In this document: positions 19,926 to 35,500 of the stretch, one piece after another
How positions within the stretch are numbered: the first letter of the stretch is position 1
Layout of the letters: each line of letters begins with the position of its first letter
Source of the DNA: Leptonemataceae bacterium
GTDB taxonomy: Bacteria > Spirochaetota > Leptospiria > Leptospirales > Leptonemataceae
Length of the DNA stretch: 64,000 bases
NCBI GenBank assembly: GCA_965242745.1
Contig: CBDETG010000034.1
Location: forward strand, 17,090 to 81,089
Direction of reading: 5' to 3'
Notes under the pieces: model-generated
Told to the model about the DNA's origin: nothing
The model's input: only the letters and a program-made list of their open reading frames with translations
Databases searched by the model: none
Translations under genes and position numbers: made by a program

Positions 19926-21884
19926 ATGCCCCCTGTAATAAAAGAAAAACAAAGAGCAGCGCTCAGGCCTAGGAAAGGCCATGCAGTAGATGCTATGCAG
20001 CAGAATGGCCATGCATCGCAGAACTTCATTAGGGACAAACATGCGGGCTTAGATAAAAACTCGCAGCAGAATGGCCATGCAGCGCAGAACTTCATTAGAG
20101 ACAAACATGCGGGCTTAGATAAAAACTCGCAGCAGAATGGCTCTGCAGCGCAGAACTTCATTAGAGACAAACATGCGGGCTTAGATAAAAACTCGCAGCA
20201 GAATGGTCTTGCAGCGCAGAACTTCATTAGAGACAAACATGCGGGCTTAGATAAAAACTCGCAGCAGAATGGCTCTGCAGCGCAGAACTTCATTAGGGAC
20301 AAACATGCGGGCTTAGATAAAAACTCGCAGCAGAATGGCTCTGCAGCGCAGAACTTCATTAGGGACAAACATGCGGGCTTAGATAAAAGCTCGCAGCAGA
20401 ATGGCTCTGCAGCGCAGAACTTCATTAGAGACAAACATGCGGACTTAGATAAAAACTCGCAGCAGAATGGCTCTGCAGCGCAGAACTTCATTAGGGACAA
20501 ACATGCGGGCTTAGATAAAAACTCGCAGCAGAATGGCTCTGCAGCGCAGAACTTCATTAGGGACAAACATGCGGGCTTAGATAAAAACTCGCAGCAGAAT
20601 GGCTCTGCAGCGCAGAACTTCATTAGGGACAAACATGCGGGCTTAGATAAAAACTCGCAGCAGAATGGCTCTGCAGCGCAGAACTTCATTAGGGACAAAC
20701 ATGCGGGCTTAGATAAAAACTCGCAGCAGAATGGCTCTGCAGCGCAGAACTTCATTAGGGACAAACATGCGGGCTTAGATAAAAACTCGCAGCAGAATGG
20801 TCTTGCAGCGCAGAACTTCATTAGGGACAAACATGCGGGCTTAGATAAAAACTCGCAGCAGAATGGCTCTGCAGCGCAGAACTTCATTAGAGACAAACAT
20901 GCGGGCTTAGATAAAAACTCGCAGCAGAATGGCTCTGCAGCGCAGAACTTCATTAGGGACAAACATGCGGGCTTAGATAAAAACTCGCAGCAGAATGGTC
21001 TTGCAGCGCAGAACTTCATTAGGGACAAAGAAAAACAAAGAACAGCGCTAAGACCTGAAGAATGCCACGAGGAATATAATTATTTGAAGCTTTTGAAGCA
21101 GATTTTAAGTACGGGAGAGGAGCGCAAAGATCGTACAGGCATAGGGACTCTTAGTATTTTTGGGGCCTGCCTGCATTTTTCTTTAGACTCGTATTTCCCC
21201 CTTCTGACTACCAAGGAGCTGCATTTCAAGTCGATCGCATATGAGCTTTTATGGTTCTTGAAAGGAGAAAGCAATGTCCGCTACCTGCAGGACAAGGGGG
21301 TGCGTATATGGGATGAGTGGGCTGATGAAGACGGCGAGCTGGGGCCTGTTTATGGGGCGCAGTGGCGCAAATGGAGTACAAATGATGGCGCAAGTATAGA
21401 TCAGATTTCTGAGCTTATTGCATCGCTTCGCAATACTCCATTTAGTAGAAGGCATATATTAAGCGCTTGGAATGTCGGCGAGTTGGCGAAAATGAAACTT
21501 CCTCCCTGCCATATCCTTGCGCAATTTTATGTGAGCAATGACAAAGGACTCTCCTGCCAATTCTATCAAAGAAGCGTCGACAGCTTTTTGGGCTTGCCCT
21601 TCAATATCGCATCTTATGCTCTTTTGACTTATATACTAGCGAATGTATGTGGTCTTTGGCCTAAGAGGCTGAGCTTCGTGGGGGGTGATGTGCATTTGTA
21701 CAAAAATCATCTCAGGCAGGCCGAAATACAGCTGCAGCGCAGGCCTTATCCATTTCCAAGACTGCGCTTGAAAAAAAACTATAGCAGCAAAAAAGCAGAC
21801 TGCATAAGCAGGATCGCTTACGAAGATTTTGCGCTGGAAGACTACCGCCATCATGATAAAATACGCGCGCCCATAGCCGTTTAG
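19926..21884 (+). CDS. thyA: Thymidylate synthase (ThyA) with ~370-aa N-terminal extension made of 22-aa tandem repeats
   Basis: The C-terminal ~275 aa align by eye to E. coli ThyA (DRTGIGTLSIFG, IWDEWADEDGELGPVYG.QWR, PPCH, QRSVDSFLGLPFNIASYALL, APIAV end). There is no in-frame ATG between the repeat and the core. The only in-frame ATG start is at 19926, upstream of the repeat. Confidence 0.85.
   Translation: MPPVIKEKQRAALRPRKGHAVDAMQQNGHASQNFIRDKHAGLDKNSQQNGHAAQNFIRDKHAGLDKNSQQNGSAAQNFIRDKHAGLDKNSQQNGLAAQNFIRDKHAGLDKNSQQNGSAAQNFIRDKHAGLDKNSQQNGSAAQNFIRDKHAGLDKSSQQNGSAAQNFIRDKHADLDKNSQQNGSAAQNFIRDKHAGLDKNSQQNGSAAQNFIRDKHAGLDKNSQQNGSAAQNFIRDKHAGLDKNSQQNGSAAQNFIRDKHAGLDKNSQQNGSAAQNFIRDKHAGLDKNSQQNGLAAQNFIRDKHAGLDKNSQQNGSAAQNFIRDKHAGLDKNSQQNGSAAQNFIRDKHAGLDKNSQQNGLAAQNFIRDKEKQRTALRPEECHEEYNYLKLLKQILSTGEERKDRTGIGTLSIFGACLHFSLDSYFPLLTTKELHFKSIAYELLWFLKGESNVRYLQDKGVRIWDEWADEDGELGPVYGAQWRKWSTNDGASIDQISELIASLRNTPFSRRHILSAWNVGELAKMKLPPCHILAQFYVSNDKGLSCQFYQRSVDSFLGLPFNIASYALLTYILANVCGLWPKRLSFVGGDVHLYKNHLRQAEIQLQRRPYPFPRLRLKKNYSSKKADCISRIAYEDFALEDYRHHDKIRAPIAV
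19998..21027 (+). repeat. Tandem repeat, period 66 bp, ~15.6 copies, in frame with thyA
   Basis: The unit ATGCGGGCTTAGATAAAAACTCGCAGCAGAATGGCTCTGCAGCGCAGAACTTCATTAGGGACAAAC repeats with only a few point variants (GGCTCT/GGTCTT/GGCCAT, AGAGAC/AGGGAC). Confidence 0.95.
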
Positions 21885-22012: not shown

Positions 22013-25000
22013 ATGAGTAATACTTTAGAAGAGTTAGCAAAGGGCAAGCCTATTACGGCCCCTGCAGAGGTGCAGGAGTTGGTAGAAAGGTTTCATTCCA
22101 ATGAAGATGGAGCAAGAAAGTATAACGAAACGCAGCTGCGGCTTGAGTATGTCAATCCGCTTTTTGCATGCTTGGGCTGGGATGTGGCCAATAAGGCGGG
22201 GCGCTCCCCCTTGTATAGGGATGTCCAGCACGAATATTCTATGAGAACGCCTGAGGGGATTAGGGCTCCTGACTATTGCTTTCAGATAGGCGGGGTGCAC
22301 AAGTTTTTTCTGGAAACAAAAAAGCCGTCCATCAATATAAAAAGCGATATAGGGCCCGCCTTTCAAGTGAGGCGCTATGGCTGGACAGAGCAATTACCTT
22401 TGTGCATACTTACTGACTTTGAAGAGTTTGCCATATACGATTGTCGTTTTGAGCCTAAGGCGAAAGATCGCGCTGATTTTGCCAGGGCTCAGTATTACAC
22501 TTATGAACATTATTTGACCAAATGGCATGAGATAGCGGGTCTTTTTTCTAAGACAGCCGTACAGGAAGGCTCTTTTGATAGTTTTATTGATAAGAAGAAA
22601 AAAGGTACTTTAGAGGTCAATCGCGCCTTGATTAGAGACATGGAGGGCTGGCGTGATTTGCTGGCTAAGAACATTGCGCGGAATAATAAAAATCTCAGCG
22701 TATCACAGCTGAATTATCTGGTGCAGCTTACGATCGACCGCATTATCTTTTTGCGTATTTGCGAGGATCGCGATATAGAAGAATACGGCCAAATGCAGAA
22801 GCTGCTAAAAAAAGAGCAGGTCTATAAGGGCTTGTGCGGCATCTTTAGGCAAGCCGATGAAAAATACAATTCGGGCTTGTTTCACTTTCAAGACGAAAAG
22901 GGGCGGGGGGCGCATGATAGTGTGAGTCTTGGATTGGCTATTGGCGACAAGCCGCTTAAGGAAATTATCCGCCATCTATATTATCCTAAAAGCTCCTATG
23001 TTTTTTCTAAAATCCCCGCTGATATACTGGGGCAGGTCTACGAGCAATTTTTAGGCAAGGTGATACGCCTGACTCCTGCGCATCAGGCTAAGGTCGAGTA
23101 CAAGCCAGAAGTGCGCAAGGCGGGCGGCGTTTATTATACGCCTACTTATATAGTAGAATATATTGTGAAACATACGGTAGGCGCGCTGCTAAAAAACAAG
23201 ACGCCTGCGCAGGCAAAAAAGCTGCGCGTGCTGGACCCTGCCTGCGGCTCTGGCACCTTTTTGCTGGGCGCATATCAGTATTTACTGCAATGGTATCGCG
23301 ACTGCTACGCCAAAGACGCTGCCAAACATAAAAAGCTGCTTTACAAGGACGGGGCAGACGAGTGGCAGCTCAGCACGCAGGAAAAAAAGGAGATCCTGCT
23401 TAGCAACATTTACGGCGTGGACATTGACAGGCAGGCCGTAGAAGTCACGAAGCTCTCGCTGCTCTTGAAAGTCTTGGAGGGCGAGCACAGTGATAGGCTG
23501 GATCATCAAAGGAGGATCTTTCACGAGCGCGCCCTGCCTGATCTCAGTAATAATATCAAGTGCGGGAATTCGCTGATAGGAACTGACTTTTTTTACGGCA
23601 AGAACTTAGACATGTTCGCGCGCGATGAGATGGAAAAGATTAACGCCTTTGACTGGGACGATGAGGCGCGCGGCTTTGGGAAAATTATGCGTGAGGGCGG
23701 CTTTGATGCGGTGATCGGGAATCCGCCATATGCGCGCCTTCAATCATTACAAGAAAGTCAACCTTACGCTATAGAGACCTATAGAAAAAATTATACAGCT
23801 GCTTCAGAAGGCAATTTTGATATTTATGTGCTATTTACTGAAAAAGGATATAAGCTGCTAAACAAAACAGGAGCTTTAGGCTTTATCCAGCCGCATAAGT
23901 TTATGCAGTCGGATTTTGGCATTGGCTTACGAAATTATTTGAGCGAAAAGAAAGCATTACAAAAAATTGTGCATTTTGGCTCCGAGCAAGTTTTTAATGC
24001 AGCGACAACATATACTTGTTTGATATTTTTAAGTAAAGCAAGGCAGGCGAATTTTGATTTTACGCCTGTGGAAAATCTTATTCCAGATAAGCTGCAGGAA
24101 GTAAAAACATATAAGCTAAAGCAGCCTTTGATTGGCAATAAATGGCATTTTACGAGCCCGCAGAAAGAAAAGGTGATGCAAAAATTACATGCTCAACCTC
24201 TAAGGCTTGGTGATATAGTTAGGAAAATATTTGTTGGCTTGCAAACCAGTGCAGACTCAATTTATGTGCTTAAGGCGCTAAAATGGGACAAAAACCTACT
24301 TACTTGTTATTCTAAATCTTTAGAGAAAGAAATTAGAATTGAAGCAGGCTTGGTGAAACCTTTTTTGATGGGAAAAGACGTAAAACGTTATACAGAAGCT
24401 CGCCCTTTAAACGTCGTAATTTTCCCCTATGAAGTTCGAAAGGGAGGCGCTAATTTGATGTCAGCGCAATATATCAAAAAAAATTTCCCTAGAGGCTGGG
24501 AATACCTTTTAGAGAATAAAAAGGGGTTGGAGGGAAGAGAAAACAGACGTTTTGAAAAAACATGGTGGCAATTTAGCCGTCCTCAAAACTTAAATGAATT
24601 TGCAACGGCTAAAATAATGGCACCAGAAATTGCTTCTTCACCTCAAATGACTTTTGATACAAATGGAAGTATGTATCATACAACCAAAGTATATAGTTTC
24701 TCTTTTCAAGAAAAGCACAACAGTAAATACTACTTAGGTTTATTAAATTCTAATATCTTATGGTTTTTCTTAACTGCTACTGGATATGTTTTGCGAGGCG
24801 GTTTTTATACTTTCAAAACGGAATATCTAAAGCCCTTCCCCATCCCAAAACTCGACCTCACCAACCCCGCCCAAAAAGCCCAGCACGATCGCATGGTGCA
24901 GCTCGTCGATCAGATGCTCGCCGCACAGAAGCAGCTGCATACATCAAAAAACGATAGCGACCGCAGGCATTATCAGCAGAAGGTAGATATACTGGACAGG

Positions 25001-25075
25001 CAGATAGATGCGCTGGTGTATGCGTTGTACGAATTGACCCCGGAGGAGATAGGGATCGTGGAGGGGAGAGGATAA
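22013..25075 (+). CDS. Type IIG restriction-modification fusion enzyme (PD-(D/E)xK nuclease + gamma-class N6-adenine MTase + C-terminal specificity region), paralog 1
   Basis: N-terminal HsdR-N/Mrr-like block (APDYCFQIGGVHKFFLETKKP). SAM motif VLDPACGSGTFLL. Catalytic GFDAVIGNPPY. Long divergent C-terminal region. 1020 aa with AGAGAGG upstream of the ATG. Confidence 0.85.
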   Translation: MSNTLEELAKGKPITAPAEVQELVERFHSNEDGARKYNETQLRLEYVNPLFACLGWDVANKAGRSPLYRDVQHEYSMRTPEGIRAPDYCFQIGGVHKFFLETKKPSINIKSDIGPAFQVRRYGWTEQLPLCILTDFEEFAIYDCRFEPKAKDRADFARAQYYTYEHYLTKWHEIAGLFSKTAVQEGSFDSFIDKKKKGTLEVNRALIRDMEGWRDLLAKNIARNNKNLSVSQLNYLVQLTIDRIIFLRICEDRDIEEYGQMQKLLKKEQVYKGLCGIFRQADEKYNSGLFHFQDEKGRGAHDSVSLGLAIGDKPLKEIIRHLYYPKSSYVFSKIPADILGQVYEQFLGKVIRLTPAHQAKVEYKPEVRKAGGVYYTPTYIVEYIVKHTVGALLKNKTPAQAKKLRVLDPACGSGTFLLGAYQYLLQWYRDCYAKDAAKHKKLLYKDGADEWQLSTQEKKEILLSNIYGVDIDRQAVEVTKLSLLLKVLEGEHSDRLDHQRRIFHERALPDLSNNIKCGNSLIGTDFFYGKNLDMFARDEMEKINAFDWDDEARGFGKIMREGGFDAVIGNPPYARLQSLQESQPYAIETYRKNYTAASEGNFDIYVLFTEKGYKLLNKTGALGFIQPHKFMQSDFGIGLRNYLSEKKALQKIVHFGSEQVFNAATTYTCLIFLSKARQANFDFTPVENLIPDKLQEVKTYKLKQPLIGNKWHFTSPQKEKVMQKLHAQPLRLGDIVRKIFVGLQTSADSIYVLKALKWDKNLLTCYSKSLEKEIRIEAGLVKPFLMGKDVKRYTEARPLNVVIFPYEVRKGGANLMSAQYIKKNFPRGWEYLLENKKGLEGRENRRFEKTWWQFSRPQNLNEFATAKIMAPEIASSPQMTFDTNGSMYHTTKVYSFSFQEKHNSKYYLGLLNSNILWFFLTATGYVLRGGFYTFKTEYLKPFPIPKLDLTNPAQKAQHDRMVQLVDQMLAAQKQLHTSKNDSDRRHYQQKVDILDRQIDALVYALYELTPEEIGIVEGRG

Positions 25076-25096
25076 TCGCAGCAGGAAGGCGTGGAG

Positions 25097-25128
25097 GCTA
25101 AACGCGCCAGCGCGTTTAGCTTTTATTT
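25097..25128 (+). terminator. Rho-independent terminator after RM paralog 1
   Basis: Perfect 10-bp stem GCTAAACGCG / CGCGTTTAGC with a 4-nt loop, followed by TTTTATTT. Confidence 0.7.
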
Positions 25129-25221
25129 GTAAGGCGCGCAAAAAATACGTGTGTCTCATTTTGGGAAATAGCGCGCCAGATTATGCCGCACCGCATGCCC
25201 ATGTACACGGCTTGCGAAGTA

Positions 25222-25241
25222 TTGTGTGCATGGGCACACAA
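25222..25241 (+). promoter_or_regulatory. Palindrome upstream of brnT, candidate operator
   Basis: TTGTGTGC-ATGG-GCACACAA lies 40 nt upstream of the GTG start. A related inverted half-site TGCCCATGTACAC is at 25196-25208. Confidence 0.3.
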
Positions 25242-25280
25242 TGATAGCACCCCCTTGGCATAAGTTCAATAACTGAATTT

Positions 25281-25568
25281 GTGAATGAAATAATATTCAA
25301 GTGGCTCACCGCCAAAGCAATTGTTAATCAAAATAAACATGGTATTTCTTTCGAAGAAGCAGTCACGATTTTTGAAGATGCTCTTTCTTTAACGATAAGC
25401 GACCCCTTGCATTCTGAAAATGAAAACCGTTATATTACAATCGGGCAGAGCAATGCGGGAAAAATTTTAGTTGTAATTCATAGGGATAGTGGCAGTGTGT
25501 TACGAATAATAAGTGCGAGGAGAGCTACGCCAAAGGAACGCAGGGATTATGAACACAGCCAAAGATGA
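25281..25568 (+). CDS. brnT: BrnT-family (DUF497) toxin
   Basis: FKW...KAIVNQNKHGISFEEAVTIFED...ENRYITIGQS..GKILVVIHRD...LRIISARRATPKERRDY matches the BrnT pattern. GTG start. Confidence 0.8.
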   Translation: MNEIIFKWLTAKAIVNQNKHGISFEEAVTIFEDALSLTISDPLHSENENRYITIGQSNAGKILVVIHRDSGSVLRIISARRATPKERRDYEHSQR

Positions 25569-25734
25569 CATGTTACCAGAGTATGACTTTTCAAATGGAG
25601 TTAGGGGAAAATACGCCAGGCGATACAAAAACTCAAATGCAATTGTAATAGACCAAGACCTTATAGACAAGTTCCCTAATTCTGAGAAAGTCAATAAAGC
25701 GCTTAGAGAATATATCAAAATAAAAACGAGGTGA
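25549..25734 (+). CDS. brnA: BrnA-like antitoxin (61 aa)
   Basis: Overlaps the brnT 3' end. The motif LPEYDFSNGVRGKYARRY is typical of antitoxins paired with BrnT. Confidence 0.6.
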   Translation: MNTAKDDMLPEYDFSNGVRGKYARRYKNSNAIVIDQDLIDKFPNSEKVNKALREYIKIKTR

Positions 25735-25882
25735 ATGCCTTGTCTGGCGTTGCGGAGAAAGATCTAATCTTAAAAAACTCAAAAAATAGCCCATTATTTT
25801 TATTGTGTTTTGCTTGTGGCAATGAAAAAGGGAAATCACCCGCTCTAAAAATTGCCAATCACATTATTGGCAAGAGTAACCC

Positions 25883-26602
25883 ATGACCCAATCCGCCATT
25901 GAATGGACGCAGATGACGTGGAACCCCACGACAGGCTGCACCAAAATATCTACGGGCTGTAAGTATTGCTATGCTGAGGTGATGAGCAGCCGCTTGCAAG
26001 CGATGGGCCTTAGAAAATACCGAGATGGCTTTACTAAAATTCGCACGCATAAAGAGGCTCTAAGCATTCCTTACCTTTGGCATAAGCCAAGAGTGATTTT
26101 TGTAAACTCAATGAGCGACCTGTTTCATCCCGAAGTGCCCGATAGCTTCATAAAAAAAGTCTTCCAAGTTATGAACGAAAACCAGCGGCACACCTTTCAA
26201 GTTTTGACAAAGCGTGCACAACGCTTGTTAGAGCTCGATCATCAGTTGCATTGGAGCAGTAATATATGGATGGGAGTATCTGTTGAAAACAAAGCTGCCA
26301 TGCATCGCATTTCTTCTCTTATCAAGACGGGCGCAAAAATGAAGTTCCTCTCTTGCGAGCCCTTGCTGGAATCACTTCCAAGATTGCCGCTGGGGAACAT
26401 TGATTGGGTTATCGTTGGCGGCGAGAGTGGACAAAAGTCAAGAGAGATGGAACAGGCCTGGGCTGTGAATATCCAAAAGCAATGTAGTAAAAATAATGTT
26501 GCTTTTTTCTTTAAGCAGTGGGGTGGAAAAAATAAAAAGAAAAACGGCCGTATTCTAAACGGCAAAACTTACGACGAAATGCCCTCAGCCCACCTCAAGT
26601 AG
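25883..26602 (+). CDS. Phage Gp37/Gp68 family (DUF5131) protein
   Basis: Signature N-terminus IEWTQMTWNPTTGCTKISTGCKYCYA, and WVIVGGESG. Confidence 0.8.
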   Translation: MTQSAIEWTQMTWNPTTGCTKISTGCKYCYAEVMSSRLQAMGLRKYRDGFTKIRTHKEALSIPYLWHKPRVIFVNSMSDLFHPEVPDSFIKKVFQVMNENQRHTFQVLTKRAQRLLELDHQLHWSSNIWMGVSVENKAAMHRISSLIKTGAKMKFLSCEPLLESLPRLPLGNIDWVIVGGESGQKSREMEQAWAVNIQKQCSKNNVAFFFKQWGGKNKKKNGRILNGKTYDEMPSAHLK

Positions 26603-26650
26603 CATAGACCCTTAGCGCATCTCACAAGCGCATCGCATACATATAAAGAA

Positions 26651-26700
26651 GGGATCAAGATCGTGGAGGGGAGAGGATGAGGCGTAGTAGGCAGGCGTGA
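26651..26700 (+). other. Remnant of the 3' end of an RM gene of the same family (tail + ~30 nt downstream)
   Basis: GGGATCAAGATCGTGGAGGGGAGAGGATGAGGCGTAGTAGGCAGGCGTGAGC aligns to 25050-25100 (the end of RM paralog 1 and the sequence just after it). Confidence 0.7.
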
Positions 26701-26975
26701 GCTTTGATAACGGCGGGCGGGGATGTGTAAATGCAGCGTCAGGAGTGCAAAAAATATGTTGCGCTGTGAGATTAAGCGGCTACGTTCGCAGCGAAGGGGT
26801 GTACTGGGACGCTGTAGGATTGGCAGCGGGCGTTGGTGGTAAAATGCGGAGTCTGGCGTTGTTGTAATATGCAGAGTCTGGGCGCCGCATTATGTCGCGT
26901 TGGGCGCAGACGTTTTTTATGACAACAACGCTGCCATCTTCCCACGCCGCATTGGCGCAGGCTACGTTGCATACG
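26700..26975 (+). repeat. GC-rich dispersed repeat element, copy 3
   Basis: CAAAAAATATGTTGCGCTGTGAGATTAAGCGGCTACGTTCGCAG and GTACTGGGACGCTGTAGGATTGGCAGCGGGCGTTGGTGGTAAAATGCGGAGTCTGGCGTTGTTGTAATATGCAGAGTCTGGGCG are identical to 28300-28475. Confidence 0.9.
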
Positions 26976-26983
26976 AGATAAAG

Positions 26984-26998
26984 ATTGTGGAGGGGAGA
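26984..26998 (+). other. Second RM-tail remnant, directly upstream of the 256-aa gene
   Basis: GAGATAAAGATTGTGGAGGGGAGATAA resembles the EEI.IVEGRG* coding end of both RM genes. Confidence 0.55.
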
Positions 26999-27009
26999 TA
27001 AATACTCAT

Positions 27010-27780
27010 ATGGATCAGACCTTTGCAATAAAAATCAGTGGTGAGGGGCTTAGTCCTGAAGAGGTCAGTATTGGAGACCTAGGCAAACTCTTAAGCTCTT
27101 TTGACAAAAGCATAAAATCATTGATTCCAAAAGAAGAGCCCGAGATGGCGAAAGATATAGTTATTGGATTAATTGGTATTGGAACAGGCAGCGCGAAACT
27201 TACATTTAAGACTAAGCTGCCTGTGGTGATGCTTGCATGGTCTTCATTAACTGCAGTAATAAGGGAAAATAATTTTCATACATTACCACCTGAATCCATA
27301 AAACCCTTAAAGGAGATTGCAGATTTATCAAAAAAAAAGCGATGTGCAGTGGAGTTTCATAATACGAATGGAGCAATTTCACCTGCAATCATTCACCCTG
27401 ATACAACTATAGAAATTCCATCTGAGAAGTATATTGAAGTAAGTACAACTATTTATGGCAAAGTGGAAAGAGTAGGCGGCAAAAAGGAGCCTAAAGCGCT
27501 TCTTTCATTACCAAAAACAGGATCACTTTCTTGTGATGTATCTGAGGAAATGGCAAAAAAATTAGCTCAGAGATTATACACATGGGTAGGAGTAGCAGGG
27601 CAGGCAAAATGGAATATCGATGATGACTCTATTGCAGCTTTTCAAATCGAGTCATTGACTTCTTATGAAGATACTCCTCTTTCTGATGCAATACAAGAAC
27701 TAGCAAAAATTACTGGAGAACTCTGGAAGGACGAAGAGGACGTAATTAAAGCTGTAGCAAAACTTAGAGGTAAAATATAA
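27010..27780 (+). CDS. Hypothetical protein (256 aa), upstream partner of the PIN gene
   Basis: The ATG is preceded by GGAGGGGAG. Its stop TAA abuts the ATG of the next gene. I recognise no domain. Confidence 0.7.
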   Translation: MDQTFAIKISGEGLSPEEVSIGDLGKLLSSFDKSIKSLIPKEEPEMAKDIVIGLIGIGTGSAKLTFKTKLPVVMLAWSSLTAVIRENNFHTLPPESIKPLKEIADLSKKKRCAVEFHNTNGAISPAIIHPDTTIEIPSEKYIEVSTTIYGKVERVGGKKEPKALLSLPKTGSLSCDVSEEMAKKLAQRLYTWVGVAGQAKWNIDDDSIAAFQIESLTSYEDTPLSDAIQELAKITGELWKDEEDVIKAVAKLRGKI

Positions 27781-28257
27781 ATGAGACTCGTTTGCTTAGA
27801 TACTCACATTTTAATATGGGGTATCAAAGGGGCAGCGACTGCGGGGCAAGAAGAGAAGGTGGAAGTTGCTCAAGCTTTTATCCAGCACCTTGAGAGTCAA
27901 AAAAGTAAGGCCATCATTCCTTCAGTGGTTATGGCAGAATTTTTGGTGGAGTACAGAGATGATAAGCAAAGGCATGAATTCAGCGCTTTCTTGGATAGGA
28001 AGTTTATGGTGGCGCCGTTTGATACGCAAGCAGCTATTAAGTTTTCAGAAATATGGCAAAAAAATCATCAAAACAAAAGCAAAACAGACACCAGAGACAA
28101 AGTCAAATTTGACTACCAAATTGTTTCGATAGCTGTTACAAAGGGTGCAGATTGTATTTATACGCATGATAAGGACCTGTCCAAGTTTGCCCGAGGTTTC
28201 ATTGAAACACAAGAAATGCCGGACCTAAGAGGGACACAAATGGATTTACCGATGTAA
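27781..28257 (+). CDS. PIN-domain nuclease (VapC-like)
   Basis: Acidic residues are placed as in PIN domains: LDTHILIW (D7), VVMAEFLV, KFDYQIVSIA, YTHDKD. Confidence 0.75.
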   Translation: MRLVCLDTHILIWGIKGAATAGQEEKVEVAQAFIQHLESQKSKAIIPSVVMAEFLVEYRDDKQRHEFSAFLDRKFMVAPFDTQAAIKFSEIWQKNHQNKSKTDTRDKVKFDYQIVSIAVTKGADCIYTHDKDLSKFARGFIETQEMPDLRGTQMDLPM

Positions 28258-28295
28258 ACAATGCTTCGCTTGCTGCGACGGCATGCTCGGGAATT

Positions 28296-28680
28296 AAGCC
28301 CGCGCAAAAAATATGTTGCGCTGTGAGATTAAGCGGCTACGTTCGCAGTGAAAATACAGCGTCGGCCTTGTTGTAATAAGCGGCGTTTGTGTACTGGGAC
28401 GCTGTAGGATTGGCAGCGGGCGTTGGTGGTAAAATGCGGAGTCTGGCGTTGTTGTAATATGCAGAGTCTGGGCGTTGTTGCGTAACACAAAAGCGAGAAT
28501 CGGCGATTCCACGCAGGCACCACAGCGCTTATCAGCTATTTTGCGAATTACACAACAAGGCCCCCAGTTAGCAAAACTAGCGCTGCCTACTCCCAACGTC
28601 GCTTATAGCTACACCGCCCTCGTCATCAAAACTACCGCCCACTCCCAGCGCCATATTTGTACAACAACGCGACACTGAAT
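28296..28680 (+). repeat. GC-rich dispersed repeat element, copy 4 (forward units followed by inverted units)
   Basis: The first ~180 nt equal copy 3 apart from a ~37-nt insertion. The distal half carries reverse-oriented units (ATTACACAACAAGGCC, TTTGTACAACAACGCG) like the copy at 47225-47470. Confidence 0.9.
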
Positions 28681-28709
28681 TTAGGCAATAATACTGGCCT
28701 CAGCTGAGC

Positions 28710-30608
28710 TCAAATGCGGCGTGAGGTGGAGGAATAGTGAGTCTTGTCTGTGTGCAGGCTGCTTAAGTGTAATTCCCGAAGCTGCTCTGCTTCTACCTTG
28801 CTTGGACTTTGGGACATAAGACATTGGCCCTTTTGGGTCTTAGGGAAGGCTATGACATCTCTAATGGAGTTCTTTTGTAAAAAGAGCATCAAGATGCGAT
28901 CAAGACCAAAAGCTATGCCTGCATGAGGCGGGGCGCCGTATTCGAGAGAGCGAAGCAAAAAGGAAAATTGTTCTTCTATTTGCTCTGGGGCTAAGGCGAG
29001 GTATTGGAATACCTGTCTTTGCATTTTGGCATCGTGAATGCGTACAGAGCCTCCCCCTATCTCTACTCCGTTTAAAACCAGATCATAGGCCTGCGAAAGC
29101 AGGCTCAGGCCGGAATCCGCAAAAGCCTTTTCGTCCATAAGTACAGGGAAATCTTCCTCTCGAGGCGCCGTAAAAGGATTATGCACGCTCTGTATTTTGT
29201 TAGTTTGAGGATCACGCATAAAAAGAGGGAAATCGTAGACCCACACAAAGGACCACAGTTTTTCTGGTATAAGCTTCCTTTCTTGGGCCATCCTCCTGCG
29301 CAAATGACCCAGAGAGCTGTGAACTACTTCCTCAGGGCCTGCTCCAAAAAAGATCACATCTCCTTTTTGGCATGATAGGCAATGCGCCAGTTTTTCTAGT
29401 AATGCAGGCTGAAAGAATTTGCTGATAACAGATTGCAGGCCCTGTTCCTCGTATTTGAGCCATGCCAAGCCCTTAGCCTGAAAGTCATGAGCAAGCCATG
29501 CCTCAAGATTCTCTATCTCCTTACGAGATAAGCCTGCTCCTCCCGGGACGCAGAGCGCCTTGACCCTGCCCCCTTCCTCCAAGACCTTACGAAAGACTTG
29601 AAATTGAGATTCCTTAACTATGTGAGCCACATCCACCAAAGGCATATCGTACCTAAGATCAGGCGCGTCCACTCCGTAATTCTCCATAGCCTCATGATAA
29701 GAAAGGCCTCGTATAGGCAGCTGCAGCTGGACCTCAAAGCATTCTTCTAAAACATAAGCCCACAGCTTTTCCATACTTTGCATGACCATAGCACGATTGA
29801 CAAAACTCATTTCTATATCCAGCTGCGTGAATTCAGGCTGGCGGTCGGCCCGCAGGTCCTCATCTCTAAAACATTTTACTATTTGAAAGTATCTTTCCAT
29901 ACCGCTTAGCATCAGGAGCTGCTTGAAGATTTGAGGTGACTGCGGCAGGGCATAGAAGTTGCCGGGCATGATGCGTGAGGGGACAAGGAAATCCCGCGCG
30001 CCTTCGGGCGTGGCCTTGTTTAGCACAGGCGTTTCAATCTCTAAAAAGTCCTGCGATATAAGAAAGTTACGTATGCTGTGATTGAGTCGGGAACGAGCCC
30101 TGAGAGCTTCCTGCATCTCCTGACGACGCAGGTCCAAAACACGATAGCGCAGGCGCAGCTCCTCAGAACTATGATCATATTCTTCTATGCTTATAGGAGG
30201 CGTGAGTGAAGCGCTGAGGATGCGAAAATCTTTTACAAGCGCTTCTACCTCGCCTGTGGGCAGCTTGCTGTTGTAACTCTCAGCGCTGCGCTTTCTTAGT
30301 ATGCCTTGCACGGCAACATTGTACTCGCTTCTCATGCCCTCCGCCTCTGCAAAGGCATCACCCAAAACCGAACGATCAAAAACAAGCTGGAGCAGACCGC
30401 TGCGGTCCCGCAGGTCTACAAAGATACAGGCGCCCTGGTCTCTGCAGCGCATAGCCCAACCTGCGACATAAATGATCTTCCCATCGTCTTTGGCACGAAA
30501 GCCTCCAGCGGGACTGCGTTTTTGGTATAGCTCTGTAAGCCATGCTCTTTGCTCTTCCTGCTTCTTGGATAGAGAAGGCGCGTTTTGGGGAGGCGTGTTT
30601 TGTGTCAT
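28710..30608 (-). CDS. aspS: Aspartyl-tRNA synthetase
   Basis: Class II motifs (FQIVKCFRDEDLRADRQPEFTQLDIE, GGGSVRIH, APPHAGIAFGLDR). The likely start is MTQNTPP at 30608 within the longer tracked ORF. Confidence 0.95.
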   Translation of the reverse strand: MTQNTPPQNAPSLSKKQEEQRAWLTELYQKRSPAGGFRAKDDGKIIYVAGWAMRCRDQGACIFVDLRDRSGLLQLVFDRSVLGDAFAEAEGMRSEYNVAVQGILRKRSAESYNSKLPTGEVEALVKDFRILSASLTPPISIEEYDHSSEELRLRYRVLDLRRQEMQEALRARSRLNHSIRNFLISQDFLEIETPVLNKATPEGARDFLVPSRIMPGNFYALPQSPQIFKQLLMLSGMERYFQIVKCFRDEDLRADRQPEFTQLDIEMSFVNRAMVMQSMEKLWAYVLEECFEVQLQLPIRGLSYHEAMENYGVDAPDLRYDMPLVDVAHIVKESQFQVFRKVLEEGGRVKALCVPGGAGLSRKEIENLEAWLAHDFQAKGLAWLKYEEQGLQSVISKFFQPALLEKLAHCLSCQKGDVIFFGAGPEEVVHSSLGHLRRRMAQERKLIPEKLWSFVWVYDFPLFMRDPQTNKIQSVHNPFTAPREEDFPVLMDEKAFADSGLSLLSQAYDLVLNGVEIGGGSVRIHDAKMQRQVFQYLALAPEQIEEQFSFLLRSLEYGAPPHAGIAFGLDRILMLFLQKNSIRDVIAFPKTQKGQCLMSQSPSKVEAEQLRELHLSSLHTDKTHYSSTSRRI

Positions 30609-30809
30609 ATTTCTAAGCTTTCGCGCTGAGCAGATAAAGATAGCTTTCGTACTATGGTTTAGGATGCCAAGCATTATTCTGTCCTGCAGGGTAAAAAGCA
30701 TGCCTCTAGTACATAGACAAGGCGCACTGGAAGCCTAAAAAAGCTCTATTTCATCAAGTGAGCGCATTTCTGTTTGACAGCGCTTAAGGCAAAACCAAGC
30801 TGTTTTCTT

Positions 30810-33614
30810 ATGTCTGCGCCCGCCGAAGTCCAGCGTCTTGTAGAAAATTTTGATGCGCACATCGACTCCTACAAAGCAGGGTCCTATAACGAGACGCAGC
30901 TGCGCGTGGATTTCGTTGATCCACTTTTTAGCTGCATGGGCTGGGACATCAATAATCAAGCGGGCTTTGCTGAAAGTTACCGCGACGTGCTGCACGAATA
31001 TACGCTTAAGACCAAAGACGGCACGAAGGCGCCCGACTATTGCTTTTGTATTGGCGGCGCCCGCAAATTCTTTTTAGAGACGAAAAAGCCCGCCGTGCAT
31101 ATCAAAGATGACGCTGCGCCCGCCTTTCAACTGCGGCGTTACGGCTGGTCGGCGAGTCTGCCCTTGAGCATCCTCACGGACTTTGAGGAATTTGCCGTCT
31201 ATGATTGCCGCATCAAGCCGCAGCAAAAGGACCGCGCCTCTGTCGCTCGGCTTATGTATTTTACTTACAAGGATTATTTAGACGAGTGGGAGGAGCTGGC
31301 GGGGCTTTTTTCTAAGAGAGCGATTCAACAAGGCGCTTTTGATACGTTTGTCAGCTCGGATAAAAAAAAGAAAGGCGCAAGCGAGATTGACAAGTCCTTT
31401 TTAGCGGACATGGAGAGGTGGCGCGAGCTGCTTGCTAAAAACATTGCGCTGCGCAACGCAAAGCTGAGTCAAAAAGAGATGAACCATTACGTGCAGGCGA
31501 CGATGGATCGCATCATCTTTTTGCGCATCTGCGAGGATCGTAATATAGAAGAATACGGCCGGCTGCAGGAGCTGCTAAAAAAAGAGCGCGTCTATAAGGG
31601 CTTGTGCCGCCTCTTTAGGCAGGCTGACGCAAAATACAATTCGGGCTTGTTTTGCTTTGAGGACGAAAGGGGGCGGGGGGCGCCTGATAGGGTGAGTCTT
31701 AGATTGGCTGTTGACGACAAGCCGCTGCAAGAAATTATCCGCCATCTGTATTATCCCCAAAGCCCCTACGTGTTTTCGCAGATTCCAGCAGAGATCTTAG
31801 GGCAGGTTTATGAAAAGTTTTTAGGCAAGGTGATACGTCTGACTCCTGCGCATCAGGCCAAAGTAGAAGAGAAGCCCGAAGTGCGCAAGGCAGGCGGCGT
31901 TTATTATACGCCCAAATACGTAGTCGATTACATCGTAAAAAATACGGTGGGCGCGCTGCTCAAAAACAAGACGCCCGCGCAGGCAAAAAAGCTGCGTGTG
32001 CTGGACCCTGCCTGCGGCTCTGGCTCCTTTTTGCTTGGCGCTTATCAGTTTCTTCTGCGCTGGTATCTGCAAAGTTATAGCAAGGAGCCTGCCAAAAATA
32101 CAAAGCGCATCTATCAAGACGACAAGGGCCGGTGGTCTTTGGCGACGAGGGAAAAAAAGGAGATCCTGCTTAGCAACATTTACGGCGTGGACATTGACAG
32201 GCAGGCCGTAGAGGTCACAAAGCTCTCGCTGCTCTTGCAGGTGCTGGAGGGTGAAAACAGCGATACGCTGGATGCGGAGCGCCGCCTCTTTGCCGAGCGC
32301 GCCCTGCCTGATCTGCGTCATAATATCAAGTGCGGGAATTCGCTGATCGGGACTGACTTTTTTTACGGCAAGAACTTAGATATCTTCGAGCAGAATGAGA
32401 TGGAAAAGATTAACGCCTTTGACTGGGACGATGAGGCGCGAGGCTTTGGGGAGATCATGCGTGAGGGCGGTTTTGATGCGGTGATTGGGAATCCGCCTTA
32501 TGGGGCGGAAATTACAGCAGTCCAAAGGAAGTATATTGATAATAGATTAGATTACTCTTCAGGAACAAAAAACTCTGCAATTTATTTTATTAGTCTTGCA
32601 AAACAATTACTAAGTCCTAATGGAATTTTATCGTTTATTATTCCTAAGTCGGTATGTTATTCAAATGGTTGGAAGGAATGCGCATTGATGTTGATAAAAA
32701 GGCTGGTGAAGTTAATTGATGTAGAAAAAGCATTTCAAGGCGTAAAGCTAGAGCAGATCATATTTCTATGCGACCAGAATAACAAAAAGGATTCTTATAC
32801 AAATGGTCTCGTGATAAATGGAGAAATAAAGCAACAGTCAATCGTTAAAAAATCAGTGTTTTCCAAATATAATATATTGCTTGCGGGACAAGTAAAAAGT
32901 GAAATTGATATTATAAACAAGATTACAACAAATTTTTCAAAAATGCTTTCTGATTATGTGTTTATTGAACGTGGTTTGAATTGGCAGAGCCAAGTTAAAG
33001 AAAAGCGAGGTCAAACTCCTGTATTTAGGGGCGCTCAACTTAACCGCTATGCGCTAGATGACGCTACAGATTTCATTTCTTTGAAAAAATTTTCTAAAGG
33101 AGAGTATGAATACCAACTGAAACCAAAACTCTTGAATCAATTAGTCATTGCTCATGTGAAAAACCCTTATCCTCATTTTTATCTACAAGGCTTTTTAGAT
33201 TTTGAGAATAGGATTGTTTTTGAAACAATATCATGTATCTTTCCTCAAGATAAGGCGAAAGTAAATTTATATTTTTTACTAGGGTTGAATAACTCAAAAT
33301 TATTCGCATGGTTACTGTATAAATTTGTATTTTCTAACGCTATACGTAGTATTCGCTTTGATAACCTCTATGTGAAAAAGATACCTGTACCCGACCTTAA
33401 TGAGATAAACCAATCTGGTATAGCAAAACTTGCAACTCAGATACTCGCCGCACAAAAAAAACTGCATACATCAAAATCCGATAGCGACCGCAGGCATTAT
33501 CAGCAGAAGGCGGATATACTTGATAGACAGATAGATGCGCTGGTCTATGAATTGTATGAACTAAGGCCGGAGGAAATCAGGATTGTGGAGGGGAGGGGAT
33601 GCGAGGAGAGATAG
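30810..33614 (+). CDS. Type IIG restriction-modification fusion enzyme, paralog 2 (different C-terminal specificity region)
   Basis: Same architecture and motifs as 22013-25075 (APDYCFCIGGARKFFLETKKP, VLDPACGSGSFLL, GFDAVIGNPPY). The sequence after NPPY is unrelated until the shared last ~50 aa. Confidence 0.85.
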   Translation: MSAPAEVQRLVENFDAHIDSYKAGSYNETQLRVDFVDPLFSCMGWDINNQAGFAESYRDVLHEYTLKTKDGTKAPDYCFCIGGARKFFLETKKPAVHIKDDAAPAFQLRRYGWSASLPLSILTDFEEFAVYDCRIKPQQKDRASVARLMYFTYKDYLDEWEELAGLFSKRAIQQGAFDTFVSSDKKKKGASEIDKSFLADMERWRELLAKNIALRNAKLSQKEMNHYVQATMDRIIFLRICEDRNIEEYGRLQELLKKERVYKGLCRLFRQADAKYNSGLFCFEDERGRGAPDRVSLRLAVDDKPLQEIIRHLYYPQSPYVFSQIPAEILGQVYEKFLGKVIRLTPAHQAKVEEKPEVRKAGGVYYTPKYVVDYIVKNTVGALLKNKTPAQAKKLRVLDPACGSGSFLLGAYQFLLRWYLQSYSKEPAKNTKRIYQDDKGRWSLATREKKEILLSNIYGVDIDRQAVEVTKLSLLLQVLEGENSDTLDAERRLFAERALPDLRHNIKCGNSLIGTDFFYGKNLDIFEQNEMEKINAFDWDDEARGFGEIMREGGFDAVIGNPPYGAEITAVQRKYIDNRLDYSSGTKNSAIYFISLAKQLLSPNGILSFIIPKSVCYSNGWKECALMLIKRLVKLIDVEKAFQGVKLEQIIFLCDQNNKKDSYTNGLVINGEIKQQSIVKKSVFSKYNILLAGQVKSEIDIINKITTNFSKMLSDYVFIERGLNWQSQVKEKRGQTPVFRGAQLNRYALDDATDFISLKKFSKGEYEYQLKPKLLNQLVIAHVKNPYPHFYLQGFLDFENRIVFETISCIFPQDKAKVNLYFLLGLNNSKLFAWLLYKFVFSNAIRSIRFDNLYVKKIPVPDLNEINQSGIAKLATQILAAQKKLHTSKSDSDRRHYQQKADILDRQIDALVYELYELRPEEIRIVEGRGCEER

Positions 33615-33670
33615 CGTTTTTAGAAAGAGATGGTTTATAGAAAAGTACAAATCAATCAGAACAGATTGCT
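33516..33670 (+). repeat. 155-bp direct repeat, copy A (3' end of RM paralog 2 + first 41 nt of the ImmA-like gene)
   Basis: Aligns to 35346-35500 at a constant offset of 1830 bp with about 6-7 mismatches. Confidence 0.95.
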
Positions 33671-34778
33671 TTATCTGTTGAAACTATTCTCTTACAAGAA
33701 AGAGAAGCTTTTAGAACACGTCAATTCTCACTATAAACGCCCAAAAGAATTTAAAGATTTATTCAATGATGAAATTGATATTGGGGTACTAAAAAAAATA
33801 GATGCTCTCTTTCAACAGGGGCTGAGCTATTATACAGACCCTACTGATATAGAACCTAGCGGCAAGAATAGTATATTTTTTAGAAAGCGGCGCTTCAATA
33901 CTACATTAGTTTTTGGTGATTATTTGCGCGTGAATGCTATAGAGCGAGAAGCGCAGCATCTCAATGCGCTTGTAAAATTATGCAATTACCCCATTGGAAA
34001 TATCCCATTTAACGATAGCCTTGACAGCTCTCCAGACCTAGCTGCTAAAAAGGCTATAGCGGAGTTTTACCCAGAACAAGGGATTAAGGACGACAGAGAT
34101 TTCTTAAAGGCTTTCATACATAAATTGTCAGAAAAGAACATTGTAGTATTTGAATATGTGGAAACTTGGAACCAAAACTATAAGAGTAGTTTGGACGGCC
34201 TCTTTATTAAGCCCAATATCATTGCCATTAAGAGACAACAAGATAGTCTTAAAAGAGAAATTTTTACCCTGGCTCATGAGCTTGGACATTGCATACTAAG
34301 CCAAGAAGAAATTGATCAGCCGGTTATAGAACAGCGTTTAGAAAACGAAACTGAAAAATGGTGCAATGATTTCGCTTTTGCTTTTTTAATAGGGCCGGAA
34401 AAAAAGAGACTTTTACTGCAAAGATCCGATTTTAGTTTGCAGTCTTCCTATATTCGGCAAATCACTCAGGAACAACATTTAAGCCGTTTAGCTATTTTTA
34501 CATTTCTTTGGATTCATCAAAAAATTTCATGGGTGGCATACCAGAACATTAAGAAGCAACTCAAGCAAGAGTACGAAAGTCGTCAAAAGAAAAAAGAAGA
34601 ACAAAAAATACGAAATAAAGAGTCAGGAATAAAGCAAAGAGGCGGCCCCCCTAAGCCTATTCATTCAAAACTCGCAGAAGATATTTATCGCAGCGCGTTT
34701 TTAAACAATGTAGTTAAGGAATACGAAGTATTGATGCGCTTTGGCAAAAAAGATATAGATAACTTTATTTATGGATAA
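33630..34778 (+). CDS. ImmA/IrrE-like (COG2856) zinc metallopeptidase domain protein
   Basis: HExxH motif in FTLAHELGHCIL. 382 aa. Starts 15 nt after the RM paralog 2 stop. Confidence 0.65.
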   Translation: MVYRKVQINQNRLLYLLKLFSYKKEKLLEHVNSHYKRPKEFKDLFNDEIDIGVLKKIDALFQQGLSYYTDPTDIEPSGKNSIFFRKRRFNTTLVFGDYLRVNAIEREAQHLNALVKLCNYPIGNIPFNDSLDSSPDLAAKKAIAEFYPEQGIKDDRDFLKAFIHKLSEKNIVVFEYVETWNQNYKSSLDGLFIKPNIIAIKRQQDSLKREIFTLAHELGHCILSQEEIDQPVIEQRLENETEKWCNDFAFAFLIGPEKKRLLLQRSDFSLQSSYIRQITQEQHLSRLAIFTFLWIHQKISWVAYQNIKKQLKQEYESRQKKKEEQKIRNKESGIKQRGGPPKPIHSKLAEDIYRSAFLNNVVKEYEVLMRFGKKDIDNFIYG

Positions 34779-35337
34779 ATACCTTATAGATACAAGCTCT
34801 CTTATAAGTTTAGCGCGCTACTACGCTCCTTTTGACGAAGAAAAAATTCTTTATACCGCAATACATAAAATGTTTATCGATCACAAGTGTGTGCTTTTAG
34901 AAAGCGTATTTAATGAGGCAAAGAACGTTGCTAAAGGCATAATTACAAAAACCTATGTTTTCTTAAAAGATATACCAAGAGAAAAAAATATATCAGTTAT
35001 TCCACCGCCTCTCCACATCAAAATTGATAACAACTGGGCGGTAAAACTTCACAATAAGATTGATAACAACTGGGCGGTAATATCCCAAAAAGCAAAATTA
35101 GCAGCAGCCGAATATGAAACACGCAAAAAAAAAGAGATAGAAAAAGCGGATTTTCAACTTATTTTCATGGCGCAAAATCAGAAAAATTGTACTATAGTTT
35201 CTGAAGAGAGCAAAAAAGAAAACGATCAAAAGCTATTTAAAAAGATTCCACTTATCTGCAAAGATGAAGAAATAACGTGTATTAGACTGCCAGAGATGAT
35301 GAAAGCTAATGGTATTCATATCGAATATAAAGTGTAA
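34771..35337 (+). CDS. DUF4411-like (PIN-like) protein
   Basis: N-terminus MDKYLIDTSSLISLARYYAPF resembles the DUF4411 start. Overlaps the upstream gene by 8 nt. Contains an internal 36-bp duplication (KIDNNWAV twice). Confidence 0.5.
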   Translation: MDKYLIDTSSLISLARYYAPFDEEKILYTAIHKMFIDHKCVLLESVFNEAKNVAKGIITKTYVFLKDIPREKNISVIPPPLHIKIDNNWAVKLHNKIDNNWAVISQKAKLAAAEYETRKKKEIEKADFQLIFMAQNQKNCTIVSEESKKENDQKLFKKIPLICKDEEITCIRLPEMMKANGIHIEYKV

Positions 35338-35345
35338 TGATATAA

Positions 35346-35500
35346 ATACTTGACGCGCAGATAGATGCGCTGGTCTATGAATTGTATGAACTAAGGCCGG
35401 AGGAAATCAGGATTGTGGAGGGGAGGGGAGGCGAGAAGACATAGCGTCTTTAGAAAGAGATGGTTTATAGAAAAGTACAAATCAATCAGAACAGATTGCT
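35346..35500 (+). repeat. 155-bp direct repeat, copy B
   Basis: See 33516-33670. It carries a second RM-tail motif and a truncated ImmA-like start (MVYRKVQINQNRLL then divergence). Confidence 0.95.

Follow-up and report, generated by a model that had tools for sequence, protein, structure and literature searches.

The 64,000-nucleotide (nt) window analysed here (contig CBDETG010000034.1, positions 17,090 to 81,089; C34:17090-81089) belongs to the 3.0-Mb draft genome of a Leptonemataceae bacterium (107 contigs, GC content 0.475) and contains two intact genes of type IIG restriction-modification (RM) enzymes, RM1 (22013..25075, + strand, 1020 amino acids (aa)) and RM2 (30810..33614, + strand, 934 aa from the ATG at 30810), on either side of the aspartyl-tRNA synthetase gene aspS (28710..30701, - strand). 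The intactness of both genes is supported by their open reading frames (ORFs), Pfam and PADLOC matches and AlphaFold2 (AF2) models. Very probably, RM1 and RM2 consist of a shared scaffold and exchanged foreign rear modules, and were later subject to gene conversion among paralogs. The scaffold would comprise the nuclease, a helical connector, the methyltransferase up to its NPPY motif and a C-terminal helical hairpin, while the compositionally foreign rear modules would have been exchanged by recombination, with the left junction at the stretch encoding GGxFDxVIGNPPY and the right one in the first long tail helix. RM1, RM2 and a third, now decayed paralog (RM3) would have come to share one genome, after which short tracts of the connector and methyltransferase would have been copied among them by non-crossover conversion.

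The first-pass annotation, made by a model from the sequence alone, had described two paralogous RM genes in direct orientation around aspS, and both were indeed recovered as + strand ORFs at 22013 and 30810. The frame of RM2 is open from a TTG at 30774 (946-aa frame, listed as 30774-33614), but translation probably begins at the ATG at 30810 (MSAPAEVQ...), a position in line with the starts of RM1, RM3 and homologs from outside the genome.

The two proteins are 52% identical overall (BLASTP, E = 0), and codon-aligned sliding windows reveal a mosaic in which identity is far from uniform, as the annotation had expected. The nuclease and the start of the helical connector (RM1 aa 1-246, 22013..22750, + strand) are the most divergent of the shared parts, with about 59% aa identity overall, 43-75% in single windows, third-position identity of 0.25-0.57 and saturated synonymous sites, in agreement with the moderate similarity noted by eye. 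The connector and the N-terminal part of the methyltransferase up to NPPY (RM1 aa 247-573, 22751..23731, + strand) are about 81% identical (windows 48-96%), and third-position identity there rises to 0.80-0.88. The corresponding front half of RM2, up to NPPY, occupies 30810..32501 (+ strand, aa 1-564). Identity is then lost exactly at the codon next to NPPY, as had been claimed: the AT-rich rear module of RM1 (23732..24910, + strand, aa 574-966) and the very AT-rich rear module of RM2 (32502..33437, + strand, aa 565-876) are unrelated, with only about 20-30% aa identity (windows 0-31%), a level at which third-position identity is not meaningful. The predicted return of identity over the last ~50 residues begins at RM1 aa 967 (24911) and RM2 aa 877 (33438). 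Over the last ~54 aa, the C-terminal tails (RM1 24911..25075, aa 967-1020, a helical hairpin; RM2 33438..33614, aa 877-934; both + strand) are about 87% identical (windows 78-92%), and over 164 nt they share 84.8% of their nucleotides. The long nucleotide-identical runs in the methyltransferase region do exist, but there are several of them and they do not form a single block reaching from LSNIYGVD to NPPY; stretches of 20 nt or more that match exactly are confined to aa 283-553 and the tail, the longest being 63, 46, 32 (tail), 29, 28 and 27 nt.

Base composition follows the same boundaries. The divergent regions are AT-richer, as previously noticed, with a GC content of 0.31-0.37 against 0.45-0.53 in the shared parts. 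The GC content at third codon positions (GC3) is 0.33 in the rear module of RM1 and 0.28 in that of RM2, compared with 0.49-0.65 in the shared parts and about 0.5 in housekeeping genes, and it shifts sharply at both junctions.

The modules also have different relatives. In separate phylogenies of the segments, which the annotation had proposed as a check, the segment trees are incongruent. One scaffold clade, with support of 100/100 in both the nuclease and the methyltransferase trees, unites RM1, RM2 and RM3 with P0003, P0008, P0021 and P0023 from metagenomes, yet the rear parts of these proteins belong to at least five unrelated types. In the rear-part tree, RM1 is sister to P0003 (100/99), and RM2, P0023, P0021 and P0008 each occupy a very long branch of their own; the tail once more follows the scaffold clade (98/93). 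RM2 can be compared with P0023, to which its front half is closest: the two are 85% identical in the nuclease and 86% in the methyltransferase part, but their rear modules after NPPY are unrelated. The match between RM3 and P0023, on the other hand, goes on for about 45 residues past NPPY. For RM1, the rear module is 70% identical to that of P0003, and for RM2, rear-module relatives were found in about 58 database clusters at 45-55% identity, with fronts that are 27-30% identical to that of RM2 and mostly lack HSDR_N. One of the homologs, P0274, has the architecture of RM2, with about 57% identity in the rear module and about 30% in the front half. Taken with the GC3 shifts, the incongruent trees and the P0023 comparison support the proposal that a specificity-bearing region was replaced by recombination between conserved flanks. 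No intragenomic donor for either rear module was found in the genome. Some of the RM2 rear-module relatives are annotated as PglX.

The exchanged unit is larger than first proposed. The annotation had named it the target recognition domain (TRD), and the recognition domain is indeed exchanged, but the block also holds methyltransferase motifs V-VIII. The methyltransferase fold extends past NPPY, since the Eco57I match reaches aa 661 of RM1 and aa 650 of RM2 (946-aa frame) and the PADLOC match reaches about aa 675 of RM2; in both AF2 models, the strand at NPPY is followed by a pair of helices, a long strand, another helix and additional strands. The exchanged block therefore consists of motifs V-VIII together with the recognition domain. 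On the left, the junction falls on the stretch of highest nucleotide conservation (GGxFDxVIGNPPY), inside the catalytic fold of the methyltransferase. On the right, it is located within the first long tail helix, which spans residues 952-977 in RM1 and 869-887 in RM2; this helix is followed in the AF2 models by helices 981-1005 and 1010-1016 in RM1 and 891-915 and 920-926 in RM2. A family member of about 1192-1198 aa (P0004; G005:C1:1689183-1692776, L049 2184-5777) carries an in-frame IS200-like Y1 transposase domain (PF01797, ~170 aa) just before GGFDxVIGNPPY, the conserved stretch at which the rear modules are exchanged; P0317 and P0327 carry PF01797 too.

Gene conversion in the methyltransferase half, another claim of the annotation, is supported at synonymous sites. 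Divergence between RM1 and RM2 at such sites (dS, Nei-Gojobori, calculated per segment) is saturated over RM1 aa 14-246, falls to 0.26 over aa 247-321, rises to 1.20 over aa 322-396, falls to 0.22 over aa 397-421, rises again to 1.76 over aa 422-446 and is 0.43 over aa 447-573. Patches with dS of 0.22-0.43 thus stand next to neighbours at 1.2 to saturation. The conversion patches of RM1 lie at 22751-22975, 23201-23275 and 23351-23731 (+ strand), with third-position identity to RM2 of 0.72-0.88, and the RM1-like patches of RM2 lie at 31521-31745, 31971-32045 and 32121-32501 (+ strand). When RM2, RM1 and P0023 are compared as a triplet, the informative sites of aa 1-244 group RM2 with P0023 rather than with RM1 (184 to 37), while in aa 245-569 RM1 is favoured at 110 of 199 sites; the maximum chi-square of 71.6 was reached in none of 200 permutations. 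Within aa 254-328, 69 of 79 sites in turn place RM1 nearer to RM2 than to RM3 (0/200 permutations), and RM1 is nearer to RM3 at aa 322-346 and 422-471. These patchwise switches of the nearest relative imply that short tracts were copied among the three paralogs.

The same data bear on the idea that RM1 and RM2 are independent horizontal acquisitions of already different family members, with a profile shaped by domain constraint only and no exchange in this genome. Such a history would fit the nuclease of RM2, which is 85% identical to that of the outside gene P0023 and 59% to that of RM1, as well as the presence of an RM1-type gene on a phage-like 72-kb contig, the patchy distribution of the family (present in 10 of 26 relatives) and the family-wide stronger conservation of the methyltransferase part compared to the nuclease. 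Synonymous divergence, however, differs 5-10 fold between adjacent segments, and the nearest relative of RM2 flips from P0023 to RM1 in defined patches (0/200 permutations). As constraint on protein sequence cannot give such synonymous patches, acquisition without exchange appears improbable. Recent tandem duplication was considered as well and rejected, because the nuclease of RM2 is nearer to P0023 than to RM1 and synonymous sites between RM1 and RM2 are saturated there. The RM1 nuclease is 57-61% identical to that of every other member of the scaffold clade, RM2, RM3 and P0023 among them. The rear modules may have been swapped either in the present genome or in a donor before arrival.

The closest full-length relative of RM1 is P0003 (68% identical), which has an RM1-type rear module and is encoded on the 72-kb contig mentioned above (L046), a contig named circular and containing phage tail-tube, sheath and baseplate genes; phages may thus carry RM1-type RM genes.

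Several points weigh against the history of module exchange and conversion preferred here. Family-wide constraint accounts for some of the elevated aa identity in the methyltransferase part and over the last ~30 residues. In the tail, a dS of 0.79 and one 32-nt identical run argue only weakly for conversion specifically between RM1 and RM2. The rear module of RM1 is of the canonical family type, about 50-70% identical to those of many homologs, and its low GC3 is the sole hint suggesting that it is foreign to its own scaffold. The activity of both enzymes and the difference in their specificities are what we infer from sequence. Finally, the assembly is a draft in 107 contigs, and the pattern might have arisen as a strain chimera or a collapse of paralogs in a metagenome-assembled genome, where the stop codon and frameshift of RM3 could be errors. 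An artefact of this kind is nevertheless very unlikely, as RM1 and RM2 lie on one 99.8-kb contig, the longest exact run that they share (63 nt, at 77% overall identity) is too short for collapse, their frames are open through about 310-390 codons of sequence with 32-37% GC, and a similar set of paralogs with an orphan tail is found in the single-contig genome G005.

The third paralog, RM3, lies on another contig (C85:16158-21092; L011 4159-9092) and is decayed. Its front half of 573 aa ends at a stop 10 codons past NPPY; when read through, it matches P0023 to about aa 618. Downstream of it lie a TRD fragment that is frameshifted and carries a tail, two ORFs consisting of the tail alone, a LAPAL-family gene on the minus strand and a 35-nt tail remnant. 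In the whole genome, there are nine matches to the tail and two intact RM genes. An 18-mer from the end of the tail, GATHGTGGAGGGGAGRGG, occurs five times in the window, always on the + strand, against 0.09 copies expected. By sequence reading, two of these copies were recognised as orphan remnants of the tail on the + strand between RM1 and aspS, at 26650-26680 (...IKIVEGRG-stop) and 26975-27003 (EIKIVEGR-stop).

These copies of the tail recall silent cassettes, as in hsdS shufflons or pilS, and RM3 and the orphan tails might be read as a store for programmed switching of specificity. All nine tail copies have the orientation of the neighbouring RM gene, and the fragment on C85 does join a TRD to a tail. 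Nonetheless, Pfam reveals no recombinase gene in the 19-37 kb part of the window, all copies are direct with no inverted repeats between them, TRD sequence is present in one orphan only, where it is frameshifted, and the copies are 80-95% identical rather than nearly identical. RM1 and RM2 also contain no simple-sequence repeats (the longest homopolymers are A8 and G6). Programmed switching is accordingly an explanation to which we give hardly any weight.

The tail also marks insertions of other genes. A 155-nt direct repeat, with copies at 33516-33670 and 35346-35500 that are 94.8% identical (the whole unit 33516..35500, + strand), encloses an ImmA-like peptidase gene (33630-34778) and a DUF4411 gene (34771-35337); each copy starts 99 nt before the end of RM2, spans the 15-nt spacer and extends 41 nt into the ImmA-like gene. 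The ImmA-like protein has weak PADLOC matches to RmrA, the RosmerTA antitoxin. In the related genome G005 (C1:996500-1003000; L054), two cargo genes of 891 and 388 aa come after an RM tail and are themselves followed by a near-identical orphan tail, whose ORF (L054 4776-4946) has a stop that overlaps the start of the next gene. Since G005 is a single contig, this succession of tail, cargo and tail, which is also that of the window, is no assembly artefact. Orphan tail remnants directly upstream of two-gene modules were seen both in the window and on contig C41: one of the window remnants ends 6 nt before the gene pair of a 256-aa protein and a PIN protein, and the stop of the remnant at C41:10039-10165 (L012 5040-5166) overlaps the ATG of a 270-aa ORF (ATGA).

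The location of aspS between the direct repeats may, as the annotation proposed, stabilise the arrangement. The gene is intact (Pfam tRNA-synt_2, GAD and anticodon OB domains) and is the single match in the whole assembly. It is sound reasoning that a crossover between the repeats would delete this sole aspS, the specificity module of RM1 and the toxin-antitoxin-like pairs; because of the loss of aspS, such recombinants should themselves be lost, while non-crossover conversion would be allowed. Selection would thus presumably remove crossovers between the repeats. The arrangement RM1-aspS-RM2 was not found in genus-mates, although their genomes also carry several paralogs with conserved tails. 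In same-genus genomes (AspRS about 62% identical), no gene of the 10-46 kb part of the window lies within 10 kb of aspS, and a search of genome contigs for loci related to aspS gave only distant AspRS genes with at most 47% identity. The nearest relatives are too distant for comparison at the level of the locus, and genus-mates share no synteny. The frame of aspS is 663 aa long, but alignments with relatives do not begin before about residue 13-77, which suggests that translation may start further downstream.

RM1 and RM2 are single-polypeptide type IIG enzymes of the Eco57I family. Their domains follow in the order PD..ExK nuclease, helical connector, gamma-class N6-adenine methyltransferase, recognition domain and helical tail, and Pfam assigns HSDR_N (nuclease), N6_Mtase/Eco57I and a TaqI_C-like C-terminus to both. 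The Eco57I model is covered nearly wholly by RM1 aa 465-661 (E = 1.8e-44) and by RM2 aa 468-650 of the 946-aa frame (E = 1.8e-30). TaqI_C scores 48.8 bits in RM1 against a cut-off of 26.5 and 20.3 bits, under the cut-off, in RM2. The recognition domain is thus matched at the level of sequence in RM1 and only at the level of fold in RM2 (about 645 columns with CamA, E = 6e-25). Of the PADLOC model PDLC03604 (REase_MTase_IIG), RM1 aa 19-1013 cover positions 9-1001 of 1011 with 822 bits, while RM2 matches with aa 5-675 only (590 bits), as expected from the replacement of its rear module. The family has more than 8000 database hits.

The catalytic motifs are intact. A PD-x13-ExK motif (APDYCF...FFLETKKP) is found in RM1, RM2 and RM3, and residues D87, E101 and K103, motif I (DPACGSG) and motif IV (NPPY), which are invariant in an alignment of 72 family members, are present in RM1 and RM2 too. 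Both AF2 models fold confidently (pLDDT 88.4 and pTM 0.82 for RM1, 90.2 and 0.88 for RM2), and the order of strands and helices after NPPY is identical in the two. Their common structural neighbours are CamA and M.BseCI, which match the C-terminal ~650 residues, and PglX, BpuSI, MmeI and DrdV, which match the whole chain. Both proteins are presumably active enzymes, and because their recognition domains differ, RM1 and RM2 most likely methylate and cut at different sequences.

Two other assignments were rejected. Type I RM systems (HsdM/HsdS/HsdR) were discarded as all functions lie on one chain and TIGR00497 gives 26 bits against a cut-off of 242.75. PglX/BrxX of BREX systems resemble RM1 and RM2 in their Eco57I-type methyltransferase core and overall fold, but RM1 and RM2 have an N-terminal nuclease, their NCBIfam scores are far under the cut-offs (124 against 400 for BREX-2, 107 against 500 for BREX-1) and no BREX genes are located nearby.

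Among characterised enzymes, type IIG proteins of the BpuSI/Eco57I type (structure 3S1S, PMC3185434) have the same plan: a single chain with an N-terminal PD-(D/E)XK nuclease, a connector, a gamma N6-adenine methyltransferase with NPPY and a C-terminal recognition domain. A sequence search of the PDB with RM1 and RM2 did not retrieve BpuSI, which matches only by fold, with low TM scores of 0.32-0.36; their recognition domains are of the TaqI_C/CamA/M.BseCI type, and RM2 fits the curated type IIG model only to about aa 675. BpuSI has a domain hinge at about residue 580 (PMC3185434), whereas the left junction described here is placed at conserved nucleotides and not at the hinge. Enzymes of the MmeI family (type IIL; PMC2731914, 5HR4) and DrdV (7LO5) are fold neighbours and are likewise single chains whose C-terminal specificity varies among close homologs. 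They form another subfamily, and Pfam MmeI_Mtase matches are secondary to Eco57I. In the report on MmeI, changes of specificity are described as rationally engineered and not as replacement of a whole module (Morgan & Luyten 2009, PMC2731914).

Allelic substitution of recognition domains in type IIG genes and their movement via flanking repeats are established (Furuta, Abe & Kobayashi 2010, PMC2853133; Furuta et al. 2011, PMC3077401; Furuta et al. 2014, PMC3983042; types IIG, I and III). The present case shares with them the conserved flanks, the unrelated recognition region, the proposed recombination at the flanks and a presumed change of specificity. It differs in that paralogs of one genome and metagenomic homologs were compared rather than conspecific alleles of one locus. 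To established TRD substitution it adds the junction inside the catalytic domain, the conversion tracts among three paralogs and a tail that also marks cargo insertions. The repeats around the ImmA-like and DUF4411 genes are similar to insertions with long target duplication (PMC2853133), since 155-nt repeats with the 3' end of RM2 bracket a two-gene insert without a mobility gene. In the published cases, however, it is the RM system that was inserted, whereas in the present locus the RM tail forms the duplicated target and the inserted genes are toxin-antitoxin-like.

A further, tentative possibility, which we consider rather less likely than its opposite, is that the front half and the tail of ~160-210 nt act as portable homology arms of a resident scaffold, making up a cassette platform that needs no recombinase and serves both RM specificity and defence cargo. 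At three or more loci, the similarity of the scaffold would be maintained by gene conversion. Through the NPPY stretch at its left and the tail at its right, the cell might take up specificity modules of foreign origin. By way of the tail alone, it might acquire small gene pairs of the toxin-antitoxin or defence type immediately downstream, and orphan tails, considering the nine tail copies here and the one orphan in G005, would be the footprints of such events.

RM1 and RM2 may serve as a natural example of how single-chain restriction enzymes gain specificity by reusing the scaffold and replacing the block downstream of motif IV. The positions after NPPY and in the first tail helix are suggested as practical junctions for chimeric type IIG enzymes. 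The locus also indicates that concerted evolution by gene conversion acts on paralogs of defence genes. Diversification by modules is a well-known route in bacterial defence and is seen here in unusual detail; current understanding is unchanged, and a well-resolved case is added in a poorly sampled lineage.

The neighbourhood of the RM genes contains, according to Pfam, thyA, toxin-antitoxin-like pairs, aspS and a HAD hydrolase gene. RM1 is preceded by thyA, the frame of which (19926-21884) has an N-terminal extension of about 380 aa, and RM2 is followed by the ImmA-like peptidase gene and then by the DUF4411 gene. Four + strand genes are located between RM1 and aspS: brnT (25281-25568, Pfam), a DUF5131 gene (25883-26602, Pfam; PADLOC candidates PDC-M41B and PDC-M30B), the gene of the 256-aa protein (27010-27780), which was assigned to no family, and the PIN gene (27781-28257, Pfam). 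With the exception of the DUF5131 gene, the accessory genes at 25281-28257 have a GC3 of 0.27-0.42. Scans for promoters and terminators gave counts equal to those of shuffled controls. The metagenomic gene P0023 is followed by tcmP and then by a DUF5131 gene (L045 11859-12602), the product of which is 85% identical to that encoded downstream of RM1; brnT/brnA take the position of tcmP here. The pair of the 256-aa and PIN genes is flanked (26603-27009 and 28258-28709) by copies of a GC-rich REP-like repeat of ~50-60 nt, which is present in hundreds of copies in the genome, often in tandem arrays.

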